Counted from the stretch's first letter, positions 11,425 through 36,733 are shown. The stretch is 64,000 nucleotides of DNA from Dictyostelium discoideum (GCA_000004695.1 CM000153.2:5248001-5312000), one strand, 5' to 3'. Translations and numbers: made by a program. Notes: a model not told the origin generated them from the sequence alone.

Positions 11425-12424
11425 ATTATTATTATTGTTGTTGTTGTTTTGGTTGTTGTTGTTATTGTTGTTTTGGTTATTGTTATTGTTGTTTTGGTTA
11501 TTGTTATTGTGGTTGTTGTTTTGGTTGTAATTGTTTTGGTTATTGCTTTGATTGTGGATTTGGTTGTTTTGATTATTAAATTGATTGTTATGGTTGTTGT
11601 TATAATTCTGATTGTTGTTGTTGTTGTTGTTGTTGTTGTTTTGGTTATGATTGTAGTTATTATTCATGTTATTTGGATTATTACTATTATTATAATTATT
11701 ATTTGGGTTATAGTTGTTGCCGTAGTTGTTTGGGTTGTAGTTGTTATTTTGATTATTGTTGTAGTTGTTGTTTTGATTATTGTTGTGGTTATTGTTTTGG
11801 TTGTTGTGGTTGTTTTGGTTGTTGTGGTTGTTATTATTATTGTGGTTGTTATTATTATTATTGTGGTTGTTATTATTATTATTGTGGTTATTATTATTGT
11901 GGTTATTATTATTGTGGTTGTTGTTATGGTTGTTTTTATTTTGATTGTTACTGTGGTTGTTTTGGTTGTGGTTATTGTTTTGGTTGAATTTATTGTTGTG
12001 GTGATTTTGATTATTGTTATTGCCGCTGTTTTGATTATTATTATTTTGGTAGTTGTTATTTTGGTTGTTATTGTTTTGGTGGTTGTTGTTATTTTGTTGG
12101 TTGTGATTGTTTTGGATGTTATTTTGGTTGGTATTTTGGATGTTATTTTGGTTGTTATTTTGGTTGTTATTGTGGTTGTTATTGTGGTTGTTATTATGGT
12201 TGTTGTTTTGGTTGTTGTTTTGGTTGTTGTTATTTTGGTTGTTGTTATTATATATATTTTCTTTTGATTTTCTCTTTAATCTATTATGGCCATTTGCATT
12301 AACATTGCTATTACCACTACGAACATTATTGTTGTTATTATTATTATTGCTATTGTCTATATTGTTATTACTATTATTGCTATTATTATTATTATTATTA
12401 ATATTACTATTACTACTATTGTTG

Positions 12425-27364: not shown

Positions 27365-27787
27365 TTAATCAATTTCATCAAGTAAAGAATAATACGTTAT
27401 AGTTTTATCTCCACAACTAATATTATAAAGCTGTTGGTTTTCGTTTGTTTCTTGTAGATATTGTTGTTGCATTTGTAATGGTTCTTCTTTTAGTAATTCT
27501 TGTATTGTTTGACCTGCTTGTTGTTTTTCTTGTTTTTCTTGTTGTTGTTGTTCTTCTTCTTCTTCTTCTTCTTCTTCTTGTTGTTGTGGTTGTTCTTCTT
27601 CTTCTTCTTGCTCCTCTACTTCTTCTTCTTTTTCTTTTTCTTCATTTTCTTCTTCTTCTTGTTCTTCTACTTCTTGTTGTAGTTGTTCTTCTTGTAGTTG
27701 TTTTTGTAGTTCTTGTAGTTGTTCTTGTAGTTGTTTTTCTTGTAGTTGTTGTTCTCCTTCTTGTTGTTCTTCTTGTTGTTCTTCTTC

Positions 27788-27863
<76 letters not shown>

Positions 27864-29665
27864 GGGGGTGGTATGATTGTTGTATTTGCTGTTGTTGATG
27901 TGGTTGTTTGTATCAATTGTAGTTGTTCAAGTAGTAACTTTTGTTCTTCCATTTGTTGTTGTTGTTGTTGTCTTTTTTTAAGTTGTTCTTCTTGTTGTCG
28001 ACTTATTTTTTGATTTTGTAAAATAAGTAAAAGTTTATTAATTTCCTCTTTTTGAAATTCTCTAATGTTAGCATAAAATTTTTCTTGGAAACGATTAATT
28101 TGTTGAATTTTATCTTTAATTTTTTGTTCCAATTTTAAATCCTCACTATTTTCATCAAAAACAAAATAAATATCTTCAATTAATGTTATTTTATATGGTT
28201 TTTCATCATTTATTTTAATATTACTACTACAACTACTACAACTACAACTACTACCACTACCACTACAACTACTGCTACTACCACTGCTACTGCTACTGCT
28301 ACTGCTACTACCACTATTATTTTTATTATTTAATACTTCATTGTTAGAACAATCATTACTATTCAAATCCATATTTGTGGTTGTTGTGGTTGTTTCTGGT
28401 TGTTGTTGTTGTTGTTCTTTAATTTTATTATTATGTTTTTCATCAAGTTGTTTTTTATCTTTATTTTCCAAAAGTGTATTTGCGGGTGGTTTCTCAGGAG
28501 AATGATATTCAATATCTTCAGGATCACTTAACATTTCCCAAGTTACTTTATGTGATAATAAAATTTGTTCGAGTGTATTTTTTCCCATTCTTAATCTACT
28601 AGAATTTGGATAGATTGCAACTCTTTCAAGTTGAACAGCGTATCTATAGATTTTAATTGCAAGCTGGAATTTATCCAATTCGTTTATTGATAGCATACCA
28701 ATATAAAAAAAAACTTCAGGAACACATTGGTGATCATAGTGAGCCTTGTTAATATAAACATAGTGAGCGAGTACTTGGCTGATCGGATCAGCAGTTGAGG
28801 CTCTGCAGTCTAACAATACACCGGCCTTGATAAATAATAAACCCAAATGGTTTGGATTTATTTTTAAACCAGATTTACAATCGGCGTAGCATTGTTTTGA
28901 AGTGATTTGATCGAAATGGATGAAAGCACGAATGTAATGGAAATTATCATTGTTTGGGAAATACTTTAAGCCGGTGATACAATAGAGTTCACATTCTTGG
29001 TTTTTCCTTTCTTGTTTGAAATAAGATGCCAAAAAGACAAAGATTTGTTCATGATATTTCTTATACAAGCTATTGTTACTAATTGTGCATGCCAAACTTA
29101 TAAGCTCACTCATTAAAGAACCTTTAAAGGAGATCACTTCATCACAACAGGTTAACGCCAAGCCAAGATGATTAAACATCTCACCAATTTGATCGACACG
29201 CAATTTACTCCATTTATTCTTATTTTTATTTTCCTTACCACCGATAAAAAAGTATTTGACGTAAAGCTCTTTAAATCTTTCAAAATTCTTTATACCTTCA
29301 AAGATTATTGCTGCTTCTCTACTTCCGTTATTTTTTAATGCAATTAAATATTTAACAAAACCACAAATACTAGTTTGATCTGATGGAATTAAATAATTAA
29401 ATTTTTTTAAATCCTTAAATTCAATAATTTTAATATAATTTTTATTATTATTTATATCAATATCAATATTATTATTAATAATATTAATATTAATATTATT
29501 ATTATTATTATTAATATTCTCAAAAAGAGAATCTAATTGTTCATTGATATCTAATTGATCTAATTGTTCTACATCTTCAGATGTATTATTATTATAATTT
29601 TTATTTTTATTTTTATTTGCTTTGTTTGGTTTATTTGTTTTTGATTTTGATTTTTTCATAACCAT
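27365..29665 (-). CDS. Hypothetical protein of about 766 aa with a TPR-like helical middle region and a poly-Gln / acidic C-terminal half
   Basis: A single long ORF with a basic N-terminus. The stretch [26 protein letters not shown]...[15 protein letters not shown] looks TPR-like. Long (CAA)n and (GAA)n coding runs appear at 27540-27870 on the minus strand. The stop lies 146 bp upstream of the next minus-strand gene start. Confidence 0.55.
27785..27870. repeat. (TTG)n on the plus strand, which is (CAA)n poly-Gln coding on the minus strand
   Basis: A perfect trinucleotide run. Confidence 0.9.
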
Positions 29666-29981: not shown

Positions 29982-30911
29982 AAAAAAAAAAAATTTTACC
30001 CATCCTTCCATAAATAAAACGTTGATGATTAATCAGTTGGCAATCACGACAAATATTATATAATTTTAAAAATAAATTAAAACATTGGAACCACACACCC
30101 CACACATGAGATGAATAATTTTAATTTTCAAAAAAAAATAAAGAAATAAAAAAATAAAAAAATAAAAAAAAATAAAAAAAAAAAAATAATAAAAATGTAG
30201 TAAAATAATATAATAAAAATGATTAACCAATCGTTGAAAATAATGATGTGACTTTTCTTTTTAAAAGTGTTTTATAATAATAATAATAATAATAATTTTT
30301 TTTTTTTTTTTTTTATTAATAAATTTTTCAATTAATATGAATTAACTCAATCTTGATTTATTGAATGTCATCGTCTATTTATAAAAAAACAATTAATTTT
30401 TAATAAAATTACCATTATTACATACTCACTATCACATTGGGAAAAAAAAAAAAAAAAATAAAAAAAAAAAAAAATAAACACACACAAATACACCCACTTA
30501 CACGAACAAAAAAAAAAAAAAACACAAACCTTGCCGTTTTCTTACATTCACACAATTCTTGAAAGAAGACTGAGTCAAATTGATTTTGTTTTTTTTTTTT
30601 TTTAATTATTTTTTTTTTTCTTCTATTTTAATTTTATAATTTCAATTTAATTGGTTATTTATTTCAAATAAAAATAATATTATTATTTACACATAAAATG
30701 AGTAAGTTAAAACTTAATTAATTATCCAAGATATTAAAATTTTTAAATCTATAATTAAAAAAAAATAATAAATAATATATAAAAAATAATAAAATTAAAT
30801 TTAAAAATAATAAATAATAATAAAAATAATAATAAAAATAATAAATAATTAAATAATATGTTTAATTAATTTTTTTTTTTTTTTTTTTTTTTATTTATTT
30901 TATTAATTTTT

Positions 30912-30950
<39 letters not shown>

Positions 30951-31015
30951 TATTTTTACAAAAAAAAAAAAAAAATAAAAAAAACAAATTAAAGATGAAC
31001 ACAATATAAATTTAG

Positions 31016-34000
31016 GAAATGAAATAATTAGATTAAGTAAAGCAAGAGTTGATGTAAAACAAGAAGTATTATATAAATTAAAAATTAATTTTCAATTTAG
31101 TTTTTTAAATAAATCAAAAGTTTTTTTAGAAGAAGCTTGGAACTATGTAAATGAATTAGAAAATCCAGAGCAATTAATAGAGTTGAAAGATGCTGCTGAT
31201 TTTAATAGTCAAGCACTATTGGTAAATCTAACAAAAGAGAATCAAATATTTAAAAAAATTAATGATGTTATCGACACATTATCAAAACATCAAAAAACAT
31301 TACAACAAATTAGATTTTTAAATACACAGCAAATTCCATCACCACCACCAACTGGAACAACAACACCAACAACAACACCAAATTTAGAAAATGACCAAAA
31401 TGAAAAATGGATAAAGGATTTACTATTTTCAATAGTGCAATTAAAACAATACTATATCGATTTCATATCAACAATTATTAAATACAGTAACGAATCAGAT
31501 TTCAAAGTTGCCTATTACCTAATGGAAGAATTACTACACACTGATAAAGTTACCATTACCAGTGACTCGTTTCAACGTCCATTCTATAGAATTAATAAAT
31601 CAATGGCTTTAAAAATTTTAAATTTAAATCAACAATTACAACCAATTCAAAATAATAATAATGATTATGGTGGTAATTACCAATCTAGTTTAAGTGAAGA
31701 TGATTTAATTTATTCATTTTCAGTCCCACAAACTCCTTCAATCTCACTATCACCCTTTTCAACACCATCTATTTCTTCACCAAATAATGTATCACCGCCA
31801 TCAACACCATCCTTTCAAGTTGTTTCACCAACTTTAATATCACCACCACCATCAACTCCATCAACTCAATCAACATCGAATACAACAAATTCATTTTGGA
31901 AAACAACCCAACAAATTCATTTTAGTTCATCAAATTTAATTTCATATAAACATCAAGTAATGGTAAATAAATTATTTCAACTATTGGATATACCATTTTC
32001 ACCAAGTTCATTATTAATTATTCAACTATCACCTAATCAATCACCATATTATGTTCAATCTTTTTGGGGAATTGATAATGGAAAGGATTTAATTGTAACA
32101 GAGAATTATAATTGTTTAGATATGGTTAATAAATTTCAAAATAATAATAATAATCAATTTTTAGATATTAATTTAGTATCATTCTCTGAGCAAATATTAG
32201 GTACACTATTAGTTTGTCCAAAAGAGAGTAAATTTAAATCTGTTCAATCTAATGATATTCTTGGTCAAAATAGTACTCCTACACAAACAACAGTTGCTTC
32301 CAATACTTCAAATTCATTACCACCACTACCTTTATCACAGCAACAGCATCAACAAACACCACCATCACATCCATTACCACAACCACCATCACATTCTCAT
32401 TTTCATTCTCATTCTCATTCAAATTCACATTTACAACCAAATTTACAATCATTATTGCAACAAAGTTCAACACTTTCTTTAATTGTACCAAGTCCATTAA
32501 AATCACCAATTTCATTTAGACAACAACAACAGAATCAACAATTACCAATAAAATCACAAACTTTAATTTCAATTAAAAATGATAGTATTAACTTTCAAGA
32601 AGATTTTGAAACTAAAAATAAAGAGAAAGAAAATAATATATTTTATAATTCACCTTTATTAAAATTACCACAGATGCAAAAACCAATACCAATAATATTT
32701 CAAAAGTTTATTACAAATATTAATGCACAATTTCTAATGATTCAATGGCTTTCTAAATTAGATGAATTCAATCAAACTTATCAACAATTAGTTTCTAATA
32801 TTAAACATTTAACAAATCCTCATCAATCTCCATCAATAAATCAAAATAATACCAATACTACCAATTCAACATTTACATCTCAAGAAGAAATAAAATTAGC
32901 AAAATCATCATCCTTTTCATCAATGTCTTCAGTTTCATCATCGTCATCTTCTTCATTATCATATTCTTTATCTACACAAAGTGTATTTAATAATAATAAT
33001 AATAATAATGATGATCATTTTTATTTAAAACTTAACTTACCAATTAAAGTTAATAAAAAAATGGTAGAAGTAATTCAAAAAAGATTTCAATCTATTCAAG
33101 ATCAATTGAAAAAGAATAGTTCAACAACTTTTTCAGATTTATTTTATTCAGTTTTTCCAAATATTTATACAAACTATAGAGAATTGGTATTATGTAAAAA
33201 GAATTCACCAATGCCAATGATAACTATTACCTTTTCACCAGATTCTCAATCATCACCACCAAATTCAACACCATTAACAGCTCATATTAAATCATCAAGT
33301 TTTTCATCTAATATTAATGGTTATCCTATCACCACCAGCACTACTACCTCTGCCACCACCACTACCACACCAATTAATTCATCATCTTCAAATACAAATT
33401 CAACAGCAGCAGCAGCAGTAACAAAAACAACTAATTCACCAATATCATCAAATTATAATAGTAATTATCAATATAATAGAACTGATAGTAATAGAAGTAA
33501 TAGTAGTAATAATGGTATGACAAAATCTCATTCATCTTCATTTTCAACTGGTTCAAGATCAAATTCAAATTTAACTGAATTATTATTACCAAATCAAATT
33601 ATATCAACAATGGATATTGATAAATTTAAGATGGGAGAAATTGTATTTCAAAGTATTTTAGTAAACTTTCATTTAGATTCAAAGAAATTACCATTGAATG
33701 TTATATATAGTAAATTGGTCTTACTAGTATTAATTAAAGCAACACATTTCTCACAATCTAGATCGATTAAAGAAATGTATAGATTAATTTCAAAACATTT
33801 AAAAAATCAAAACCAAATTAATATATTCAATCAAAAGTTTAAACCAATCTTTAAACAACTTTCAAATGATAATCCACATCTTCAATTGAATTGGATATTG
33901 TTAATTGAAGAATGGTTTCCTGATGAATGGGAAAATCCAAAACAGTTATTCCCAAGATCAACAAATGAAATTAAAGGTTCATTCTTTGGTAAAAGATTAT

Positions 34001-36497
34001 TAACACCAGCAATTCATCAACATTTGTTTACACCAGATGGTCAATTTATTAAGCGTAATAAATATGGTAAAAAAGATGTATCTTGGTATCCTGAGAAAGA
34101 ACCAGTTTGGTATTTTAAAAAGTATCCTGAAATTGCAGGTTATGAATATGCAGCAACTGAACTAATGAGATCATTAGGTATTAAGAATTTACCATACTCT
34201 GAATTGATTTTATTCTATGATCCACAATTAAAAAAATCATATCCAGTATTATTAACTTTAGCTGTACAAGGTAAATGTATTTCTGATATTTGGTTATCAT
34301 CACAATCAAATATAACATCATCATCATCATCATCATCAACATCAACATCAACATCAATACCAAATTCTAGTCCAACAACAAATTTTAATTCACATTTAAG
34401 TGAAATTAATGAAAATTTATTAGATAAACATAATACTGGTTTATTGATAATTTCTTCATTACTTTTATCAGTTGAAGATGGTAAACCTGATAATTTCATA
34501 TTATCAGATAATGGTAAATATTTAACACCAATTGATAATGATCGTTGTTTTATAGCACCATCAACAGTTTGTGAAAAAGGATCATCATTCATCTATGTAT
34601 TAATGGAACAGAAAAAGAAATTAGTAATGAAATCAATATTATTTAATCTATCAATGATGAAAGAGAAAGTAGATGAATCAGTACAACGATTCTTTTTAGA
34701 TTTAGATTGTTTTGAATTCCTTAAAGAATGGTTAGAGAATTTAATCTATGTTCATGATAGATATTCAACTCTTTTACCAGAAGAAGAATTAAATTCACTC
34801 TATAATCAAAATAATTGTATAGTTCGTATATTTTTTACAACTCAAATGATTCATAATCTTTATAATACATTATTAAATATTCAATATCATTTTAAATATT
34901 CAATAACAAATAGTTATTTAGATTTAATTTCAAAATTATTTGATCCATTTGTTTTTAAACAATATCAATTATCATTTAATATTTGTAATAATAATAATAA
35001 TAATAATAATGATCAAAATCAAAATTATTTAAAATCTTCACCCACAATATTATCATTACAAGAAAGATATAAGTCAATGGTATTTTATAATAATGGTATT
35101 AATAATTTAAAACAAATTGTAAATATGTTAGGAATTACAAATCAAGAATTATTTGGTGAAGCAGTAAGAGTAAAGAATGAACCATCAACGGCTTTAGCAT
35201 ATTTAAAGAAAATGAATCAACGTAAACAAGATATTAAAAATACAAATCAAAAGATTTTAATGAATAGTTCACCAAATTCTAGTCCACCAAATCAAAGTCC
35301 ACCAAATTCAATTAGTAATTTATCAACTTGTTTAAATTTATCAATCCAACAACAAATAACCTTACCAAATCAATTACATCAACATCAATATCAACAACAA
35401 CAACTATATAAACAATTACAACAACAACCATCACCATCACCATCACCACAACAACAACAACAAAATGAAATGATTAATACAATTGATGTGTCACAATTTA
35501 ATAAAAAACAATGTGTAGAATTTGAAAAGAAATTTAAAAATGAATTTCCAAATGCAGAGAGTTTTTCAATTCATAATTCATTATTTACAGATTCTTATAT
35601 AAAGAAACTTAGTTTCTCTCATATTCAATTTTTAGATTTAAGAAATTCTGAAAAATTAACACGTGCATCACTTGGTTATCTTATAAAGATAACACCAGAA
35701 TTAATTTATTTAAATATTAGTGGTTGGAAATCATTGAAAAAGTTAATGTTTACAAGTAATTCAAATTTTGAAATGGGTTTAATTGATTTAAATCAATTGG
35801 TTACTCTAGAGGATGAAACTCAAATTCCACCTACAAAACTTAATAAATTGGTTGTCAATGATTGTTGTAATTTAGAGATTATCGATTTCTATTGTTCAAT
35901 GCCTCAATTAAAAACTTTAGATTGTTATAGAAATAATAAATTGGAAAAAGTTCGTTTAAATTATAATGTAAAATTAAATACTGATATTGATGATTCAAAA
36001 ATTTTAAAAAGACCTTTAAATTTTATAATTTTAGGTGATAAAAATGTTGGTAAAGTAAGTATAATAATTTTTAAAAAATAATAAAAAAAAAAAAAAAAAC
36101 TATATAAAACTAATTAATTAATTAAATAATTAAAAAAAATAGACATCAGTTATAAAATTATTTAAATATAAAAGTAGTATAAAATTAATGCTTCCAAATT
36201 TTTATGAATCAACTTTTGAAAATCCAATTCCAGTTGAAATTTTAAATATAATTGAATCAAAAATTAAATCAAATTGTTTCTGTGGATTTAATATTATTTT
36301 AGTTTATGATTGTTTTTCAGAAGAAAGTCTTGTTAAATGTAAAAAATGGTTATATAATTTTAAAAAGATTGTTGATCCATGTGATTATATTAGAATCACT
36401 TTAATTGGTAATAAATATGATTTATTATCAATTAAAGTTAATGATAATGATGTTAATGTAAGTTTTAAAAAAAAAAATATAAAAAAAAAAATATATG

Positions 36498-36529
<32 letters not shown>

Positions 36530-36733
36530 TAATTGTTTATTTTTATTTTTATTTTTAATTTTAATTTTTTTTTTTTTTTTTTTTTTTTTCTTTATTTATA
36601 GTCTTTTTCTAGGGAATTTAATATTAAAACATTTAAAATTTCAACAAAACAAAATAATTATGGTGAATTAAATATAATTGGAAATCATTTATTTGAACGT
36701 TGTAGTCAAGATTGTAGAATTATTAGCAAATAA
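31016..36733 (+). CDS. Large multidomain protein of about 1740 aa, with a PI4K-type-II-like kinase domain, leucine-rich repeats and a C-terminal Ras/Rab-like small-GTPase domain. Exons 31016..36054, 36143..36457 and 36602..36733. A possible 4-nt first mini-exon ATGA lies at 30698..30701.
   Basis: The kinase-like region reads GSFFGKRLL...GQFIKRNKYGKKDVSWYPEKEP...LLSVEDGKPDNFIL...PIDNDRCFIAPS. This matches the PI4KII motifs GSSGSYFVKD.., DRGNDNWLI and AIDNGLAFP. The LRR-like segment is LDLRNSEKLTRASLGYLIKITPELIYLNISGWKSLKKL...LKTLDCYRNNKLEKVRL. The large exon ends in the P-loop ILGDKNVGK, followed by a GTAAGT donor. The next exon continues TSVIKLFKYKSS...ITLIGNKYDLL (NKxD), and the last exon ends SFSREFNIKTFKISTKQNNYGELNIIGNHLFER. 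In-frame Met is lacking in the first 60 codons of the open frame, so the 5' end is uncertain. Confidence 0.6.

Follow-up and report, generated by a model that had tools for sequence, protein, structure and literature searches.

Several described systems lie close to the protein considered here. Among them, PI4KII kinases carry a Cys-rich CCPCC motif in the kinase domain, which is palmitoylated and serves as a membrane anchor, and the Roco proteins (LRRK2; the Dictyostelium Roco family) join leucine-rich repeats (LRRs) and a Ras-like G domain to a kinase within a single large polypeptide. We analysed a 64,000-nucleotide stretch of the Dictyostelium discoideum genome (GCA_000004695.1, CM000153.2:5248001-5312000; hereafter the window, with positions counted from its first nucleotide), in which a plus-strand gene encodes a protein that has a tandem pair of PI4KII-like kinase domains, LRRs and a C-terminal Rab-like G domain. 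Taken as a whole, the locus is best explained, in our judgement probably correctly, by an effector-type kinase that was acquired horizontally, domesticated and joined to a Rab-like module. A previous screen for gene transfer between endosymbionts and amoebae found only three families, one of them ferritin-like and with Dictyosteliidae as sister to Paracaedibacter, which sets a precedent for transfer between these two groups, from Paracaedibacter to Dictyosteliidae; it did not list the gene described here (PMC5751055).

As part of this explanation, the locus is read as one four-exon dictyostelid gene for a predicted 1836-residue cytosolic multidomain protein, which would run from a helical N-terminal region through two kinase copies, the first degenerate (a pseudokinase) and the second intact, to about six LRRs and the C-terminal Rab-like G domain (Table 1). 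The four exons join into an uninterrupted reading frame, longer than the ~1.7k residues given in a first-pass annotation of the sequence, which had opened the gene with the long exon at 31016. No in-frame ATG, including at 31016, was found in the sequence near the 5′ end of the long open reading frame (ORF; 31183-36081 in the mechanical ORF list, open from 31000). Translation is predicted to begin instead at 30698, in a first exon of only 4 nt, and the identical exon opens the models that NCBI gives for the D. discoideum (protein P0001, locus L022) and D. purpureum (P0002, L023) orthologues, where it is spliced to aaag/AT... in both. Used in the window gene, the same acceptor at 30994 (aaag/AT, the AT starting at 30995) yields the N-terminus MNEHNINLGNEII, as in P0001, the equivalent in P0002 being MNDNINNNLGNEII. 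A start of exon 2 at 31016 is also in frame, 21 nt downstream of 30995, and gives 7 codons fewer (1829 aa). It was replaced by 30995 after comparison with the two orthologue loci, the conservation of the seven extra residues favouring the upstream site.

At the 3′ end, the first-pass annotation had noted a GTAAGT donor directly after a P-loop, and GDKNVGK indeed closes exon 2 at 36054. The 36054/36143 and 36457/36602 junctions are both in frame, the Pfam Ras match spans both, and the models at L022 and L023 have introns at both positions, after GK and after (V/I)N. Since an ATG at 36188 opens a 114-aa ORF, the Rab-like part (36143-36733) could be a separate small gene starting at that Met, and the fusion an artefact of gene prediction. 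That ORF has no P-loop, the motif being located at the end of the long exon just before the consensus GTAAGT, and a separate gene is therefore not credible. In addition, the Pfam Ras and Rab35 alignments continue without a break over the 36054/36143 junction, the phase-0 intron after GK is also found in the L022 and L023 genes, and the protein P0003, labelled D. citrinum, is equally fused. We consider such an artefact extremely improbable and retain the single four-exon gene.

Table 1. Coordinates of the gene, its exons and introns, and the encoded domains and motifs (window positions; residues in the 1836-aa numbering)
Feature	Coordinates	Strand	Description
Exon 1	30698..30701	+	ATGA, i.e. 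Met plus first base of codon 2; GTAAGT donor next; from the sequence
Intron 1	30702..30994	+	293 nt, gtaagt...aaag; alternative in-frame acceptor tttag ends at 31015
Exon 2	30995..36054	+	5060 nt, residues 2-1688; ends on GGT AAA (GK of the P-loop)
N-terminal helical region and first kinase-like copy	31141..33207	+	Residues ~51-739; catalytically degenerate; predicted pseudokinase
Second kinase-like copy	33631..35016	+	Residues 881-1342; PI4KII-like fold, intact catalytic residues, Ser-rich disordered insert
Catalytic loop E-D1163-G-K-P-D-N1168	34474..34494	+	Residues 1162-1168; D and N invariant over the 30 aligned sequences
Metal-binding (DFG-equivalent) motif I-D1182-N-D-R	34531..34545	+	Residues 1181-1185; 30-sequence alignment
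Leucine-rich repeats, Cys-containing type	35554..35991	+	Residues ~1522-1667; Pfam LRR_4, model, P0004 alignment
G-domain start: β1 and P-loop GDKNVGK (G1)	36004..36054	+	End of exon 2; Pfam Ras, Rab35 alignment
Intron 2	36055..36142	+	88 nt, gtaagt...atag; phase 0 after GK; position kept in orthologues
Exon 3	36143..36457	+	Residues 1689-1793; T of G1, degenerate switch I/II region (ILNIIESK for WDTAGQE), G4 NKYD
Intron 3	36458..36601	+	144 nt, gtaagt...atag; position kept in orthologues, after (V/I)N
Exon 4	36602..36733	+	Residues 1794-1836 plus TAA; G5-like STK, C-terminal helix, no CAAX/CC prenylation motif

The second kinase-like copy presents the full kinase catalytic set (ATP-binding Lys, catalytic Asp/Asn and metal-binding Asp), and the motifs from which a kinase had originally been proposed are all in place, with GSFFGKR at residues 996-1002, EDGKPDN at 1162-1168 and IDNDR at 1181-1185. 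In an alignment of 30 family members, the β3 Lys (YFKK, K1043) and the catalytic-loop D1163 and N1168 are invariant, as is N1183 of the metal-binding I-D-N-D, while the αC Glu (E1052) and both D1182 and D1184 are conserved in at least 90% of the sequences. This near-invariance across the 30 members argues for purifying selection on ATP-dependent phosphotransfer. The AlphaFold2 (AF2) model of the kinase region (mean predicted local distance difference test score, pLDDT, 89; predicted template modelling score, pTM, 0.86) shows disorder confined to the Ser-rich insert. Searched against the PDB with Foldseek, its top fold matches are seven PI4KIIα/β chains (E=1e-5 to 5e-5), followed by MAP kinases and RNase L at ~1.5e-3 or weaker.

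In sequence searches, the kinase region found no match in the PDB as a single sequence and, by profile, only a non-significant one to PknA (E=1.8); it had no match in NCBIfam; and neither Pkinase nor PK_Tyr_Ser-Thr of Pfam matched the window protein. No significant match of the middle region to any kinase hidden Markov model (HMM) was thus obtained in the Pfam, NCBIfam and PDB sequence searches. The sole Pfam family matched by more than one member is PI3_PI4_kinase (PF00454), with sub-threshold matches in 3 of the 30 (best E=0.0043). Together with the PI4KII-first ranking by Foldseek, these matches indicate that the motif-based "PI4KII-like" call of the first-pass annotation was right at the level of the predicted fold; it does not extend to membership of the PF00454 HMM family.

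PI4KIIα/β (PDB 4pla, 4hnd, 4wtv) is the nearest solved fold, yet it shares only 13-15% identity with the kinase region. The catalytic loop of copy 2 (D-G-K-P-D-N) differs from that of PI4KII by its Lys at +2, which is typical of Ser/Thr protein kinases, and 19 residues separate the catalytic from the metal-binding Asp, both features being nearer to Ser/Thr kinases and PI3Ks than to PI4KII. The CCPCC motif is also missing (no CC pair is present in residues 881-1342), and the domain forms a tandem pair with a helical region before it. As for other candidates, actin-fragmin kinase (Physarum, PDB 1cja) and further atypical PI3/PI4K-like kinases (CotH, PIKKs, PI3Ks) have no detectable sequence relationship to the window protein and a different domain context, and MavQ, a Legionella phosphoinositide-kinase effector (PDB 7m7a), is a much weaker structural match than PI4KII. 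From sequence and predicted structure, these comparisons suggest that the kinase-like copies represent a new family in the PI3/PI4K-like branch of the kinase fold, found here in a new architecture.

The insert in copy 2 is a Ser/Thr-rich low-complexity tract of roughly 25 residues (window 34280-34400, residues ~1097-1133, model ~225-260), modelled with pLDDT <50 and far shorter in the otherwise 99%-identical P0001 (LSTSIPTNNSEINE).

Copy 2 would act as an active ATP-dependent phosphotransferase on a phosphoinositide or a protein. Alternatively, it could be a pseudokinase scaffold or perform another chemistry (AMPylation, glutamylation), the protein as a whole serving chiefly as an LRR/G-domain scaffold. 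This proposal would fit the lack of a significant match to kinase HMMs, the existence of kinase-fold effectors with non-kinase chemistry (SidJ) and the clear loss of catalytic residues from copy 1. It is at odds with the β3 Lys, the αC Glu, the catalytic D-x-K-x-x-N and the metal-binding D, which are invariant or nearly so over 30 diverse members, and we regard it as unlikely compared with phosphotransfer.

The first kinase-like copy is matched by the family HMM at residues ~455-739 (E=2.8e-27), and a profile made from N-terminal copies matches the window protein at 51-223, 383-414 and 520-733. It is broken up by long low-complexity tracts and displays HFS for hfK, PKESKFKS for psDaKaDN and IKND for IDND. 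Copy 1 of D. purpureum is likewise degenerate; every catalytic residue of copy 1 is kept in P0003 and in the bacterial homologue P0004, from Ca. Paracaedibacter (Odyssella) acanthamoebae (WP_038465080; 41% identity, E=1e-87). With copy 1 degenerate and copy 2 intact, the architecture reads pseudokinase-kinase-LRR-G domain and, by analogy with known pseudokinase-kinase tandems, copy 1 may be a regulatory pseudokinase of copy 2.

The LRRs had been placed after the kinase in the first-pass annotation. The model, with about 9 short β-strands at regular spacing, and the 32% identity of the region to residues 1262-1414 of P0004, overlapping residues 1333-1488 of that protein, which Pfam LRR matches weakly (E=0.002), bear this out; the Pfam LRR_4 match in the window protein itself stays below threshold (E=8e-5). 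The repeats would recruit a partner or substrate.

Downstream of them, the proposed Ras/Rab-like GTPase is recovered by Pfam Ras over both splice junctions and above the gathering score (E=4e-10 with the full-length protein and 3.4e-12 with its C-terminal part alone), and its closest PDB sequences are Rab35 (E=1.3e-8), Rab11, Rab1 and Rab21. A word-indexed homologue search with the GTPase returned only a 98-aa fragment. The LRR and G region, modelled with AF2 on the 99%-identical C-terminus of P0001 from a 6-row alignment (pLDDT 73), gave Foldseek matches to KRAS, Rab5 and Rab1 at E~2e-5. The domain shares with Rab GTPases (Rab35 best; Rab1, Rab5, Rab21) the G-domain fold and the G1 (GDKNVGKT), G4 (NKYD) and G5-like (STK) motifs, kept in all four dictyostelid sequences. 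It differs from them in sitting after ~1670 residues and in falling short of the complete G1-G5 set: the conserved switch I Thr is absent from all four sequences, and the position of DTAGQ reads NIIES, KAIEN or SEINS, the Rab35 alignment placing ILNIIESK opposite WDTAGQE. The stretch from G1 to G3 is ~10 residues shorter than in Rab, with one strand there in the model, and no prenylation motif (CC, CXC or CAAX) is found at the dictyostelid C-termini (...CSQDCRIISK, ...CCSDCKNIK, ...CPNENHHI). The loss of the switch I Thr, of DxxGQ and of a lipid anchor makes a classical membrane-anchored switch unlikely. Judging from its motifs, the G domain probably still binds nucleotide, and it would probably be a module for regulation or docking that binds nucleotide without cycling, and not a classical Rab switch.

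The spliced product retains the order kinase, LRR, GTPase that the first-pass annotation had described as the reverse of Roco and without a COR domain. Compared with Roco, the order is indeed reversed, the kinase is not a eukaryotic protein kinase and the G domain is Rab-like, C-terminal and without switch motifs. No COR domain was matched by Pfam in the window protein, which ends ~150 residues past the P-loop, and the match to the Roc profile does not extend beyond the 20-residue P-loop (E=1e-4 to 2e-3, versus E=3e-12 for Ras). Roco membership was thus ruled out by the missing COR and Pkinase domains and by the reversed order, and the kinase-LRR-G order is independent of Roco/LRRK2. Note that LRRs, a G domain and a kinase in one chain, as in Roco, would make an intramolecular control of the kinase by the G domain plausible by analogy.

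We then turn to the distribution of the kinase-like family. A word-indexed search with the kinase region, as single sequence or alignment, returned no homologue; an exhaustive HMMER search of 1.84 billion representatives recovered 308 at E<=1e-3, 141 of them at E<=1e-10. Among the matches listed, most members have two D-x-K-x-D-N motifs 500-600 residues apart, and the family HMM finds two domains per protein; in the window protein these lie at ~455-739 and 881-1342, and the layout recurs in most of the 150 listed members. LRR, Sel1, ANK and patatin modules accompany the pair in these large proteins, and the carriers are mainly obligate intracellular bacteria of protists (Paracaedibacter, Dependentiae, Chlamydiae). 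Examples are P0004, P0007 from Dependentiae, and further proteins from metagenome-assembled genomes (MAGs) of Pseudomonadota and Paracaedibacteraceae, which bear ankyrin, patatin-like phospholipase, TPR or RanGAP-type LRR annotations. A pattern scan of the GTDB species genomes gave 21 loci, all in Dependentiae, Chlamydiae, Paracaedibacteraceae or alpha-/gammaproteobacterial MAGs, with at most 7 copies per genome; it found no Legionella locus, and the Legionella pan-kinome survey does not mention the family. In the source databases the proteins are "hypothetical", with only Ras annotated, no Pfam model covers the kinase-like domain, and no paper describing the family or the gene was found in the searchable literature, specialised resources such as KINtaro lying outside the search.

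Outside dictyostelids, the eukaryotic homologue P0015 of Naegleria gruberi (XP_002671568) is intronless and has an additional canonical Pkinase domain. At its locus (L026 3001-8886), the tandem PI4KII-like pair, LRR_6 repeats and Pkinase amount to three kinase-type domains in one protein. P0003 (L024, GCA_054859145.1) is ~46% identical to the window kinase domain, less than D. purpureum, with copy 1 apparently intact; it may be either a paralogue or the orthologue of a species that is divergent or wrongly labelled.

The bacterial protein P0004 is also the one that most directly informs on the origin of the gene. By BLASTP, the window protein is colinear with it from the first residue through the LRRs, to residue ~1628: segments 1-199, 512-600, 667-741, 853-1416 and 1486-1621 (1829-aa numbering; add 7) align in order to P0004 189-378, 550-636, 640-713, 754-1258 and 1262-1414. 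No P-loop or GTPase is found in P0004, and the G domain is dictyostelid-specific. In a neighbour-joining tree (82 sequences, 332 columns, 100 bootstraps), dictyostelids are monophyletic (100%) and group, with 94% support, with P0004 and P0005, the latter a protein with Sel1 repeats that is encoded by an uninterrupted metagenomic ORF; a grouping of dictyostelids with Naegleria receives 1%. P0004 is encoded in a complete bacterial chromosome (CP008941.1, L025 3177-12067), with a 933-aa LRR protein before it and an IS110-family transposase after it, which suggests a mobile effector-gene neighbourhood. The GC content of each gene matches its host (25% for the window gene, 38% for P0004, 33% for Naegleria). 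Contamination or an assembly artefact was ruled out by the spliceosomal introns, by the host-like GC content and by the flanks, syntenic with the D. discoideum assembly GCA_054859355.1 (L022) at 85-99% amino-acid identity.

In the simplest reading of these data, the whole gene was transferred long ago from a bacterium to dictyostelids, with an independent event in Naegleria. Most likely, an entire effector-type gene would have passed from an endosymbiont of the Paracaedibacter lineage to an ancestor of group-4 dictyostelids. Domestication would have followed, with adoption of the host base composition, gain of spliceosomal introns and low-complexity inserts, and loss of the catalytic residues of copy 1; the fusion to a host-type Rab-like domain would have taken place later, within dictyostelids. 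In the D. purpureum orthologue, the catalytic loop of copy 2 is interrupted by an additional intron (EDQK/DDN; L023 5986/6075), whose absence from the window gene and from the D. discoideum gene at L022 indicates intron gain or loss in a horizontally acquired gene.

The opposite direction was also considered, in which the family originated in amoebae, perhaps derived from PI4KII, and intracellular bacteria took it up as a eukaryote-like effector that then spread among co-resident symbionts, the dictyostelid gene being inherited vertically. The eukaryotic PI4KII as nearest solved fold, the presence of the domain in two amoeba lineages and the recognition of amoebae as a 'melting pot' for exchange among symbionts (PMC5751055) all speak in its favour. 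However, among the 30 sequences looked up out of the top 150 matches only 4 were identified as eukaryotic, and these come from two lineages, whereas the bacterial members, rich in paralogues, belong to at least four phyla or classes. Dictyostelids are nested beside Paracaedibacter (94%) with Naegleria placed elsewhere, and P0004 has both copies catalytically intact, unlike the window protein and D. purpureum, in which copy 1 has decayed. Reverse transfer thus appears improbable to us, and we favour transfer from bacterium to dictyostelid.

Several observations weigh against a domesticated, PI4KII-like bacterial effector kinase with a Rab-like module. The TM-scores of the kinase model to PI4KII are modest (0.33-0.47), and the window protein has no match to PF00454 at E<=1. 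Proteins with a kinase fold can catalyse other reactions, such as glutamylation by SidJ. The tree is distance-based and its eukaryote sampling is what a 50%-identity library returned, and the direction of transfer is drawn from diversity and nesting in sequence comparisons. The P0003 locus is not syntenic within ±5 kb, and P0003 may be a paralogue. Lastly, with a pLDDT of 73 and a 6-row alignment behind the C-terminal model, the loss of a β-strand between α1 and the next helix is tentative.

The surroundings of the gene are typical of a dictyostelid genome, the window having ~22% GC and many poly-N/Q/S coding tracts; no tRNA gene was detected in its 64 kb. Between 10000 and 14000, where GC is ~20-26%, a strong positive GC skew (0.38-0.54) falls together with extended (GTT)n/(ATT)n-type arrays (e.g. 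11426-12251), which would code for poly-N/Q on the minus strand and are ordinary for dictyostelids. Upstream and in divergent orientation lies a 766-aa ORF (27365-29665, minus strand) that contains long tracts of poly-Q and of acidic residues and is conserved in the D. discoideum assembly (L022).

A more extended reading is possible rather than probable, namely that a captured Paracaedibacter-like effector gene was rebuilt as a host signalling protein, with one kinase copy silenced and a non-switching Rab-like domain added. The tandem domain would then represent an undescribed, widespread PI4KII-like family that serves as an arsenal, with multiple paralogues, for amoeba-associated bacteria (Holosporales, Dependentiae, Chlamydiae, gammaproteobacteria), probably rewriting host phosphoinositides or phosphorylating host trafficking proteins, and the amoeba copy might act on the same pathway from the side of the host, e.g. 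in phagosome or symbiont control.

Overall, the kinase-like copies point to a large protein-kinase-like family without a Pfam model, structurally adjoining PI4KII, whose concentration in bacteria living inside protists makes it a candidate new class of host-manipulating kinases. The window gene would be an unusually clear case of full-length transfer from endosymbiont to amoeba, after which domestication would have brought in introns and low-complexity inserts, turned one kinase copy into a pseudokinase and joined the protein to a host GTPase module. As the new architecture is found in a tractable organism, Dictyostelium genetics could probe how a kinase is controlled by a degenerate G domain and a pseudokinase.

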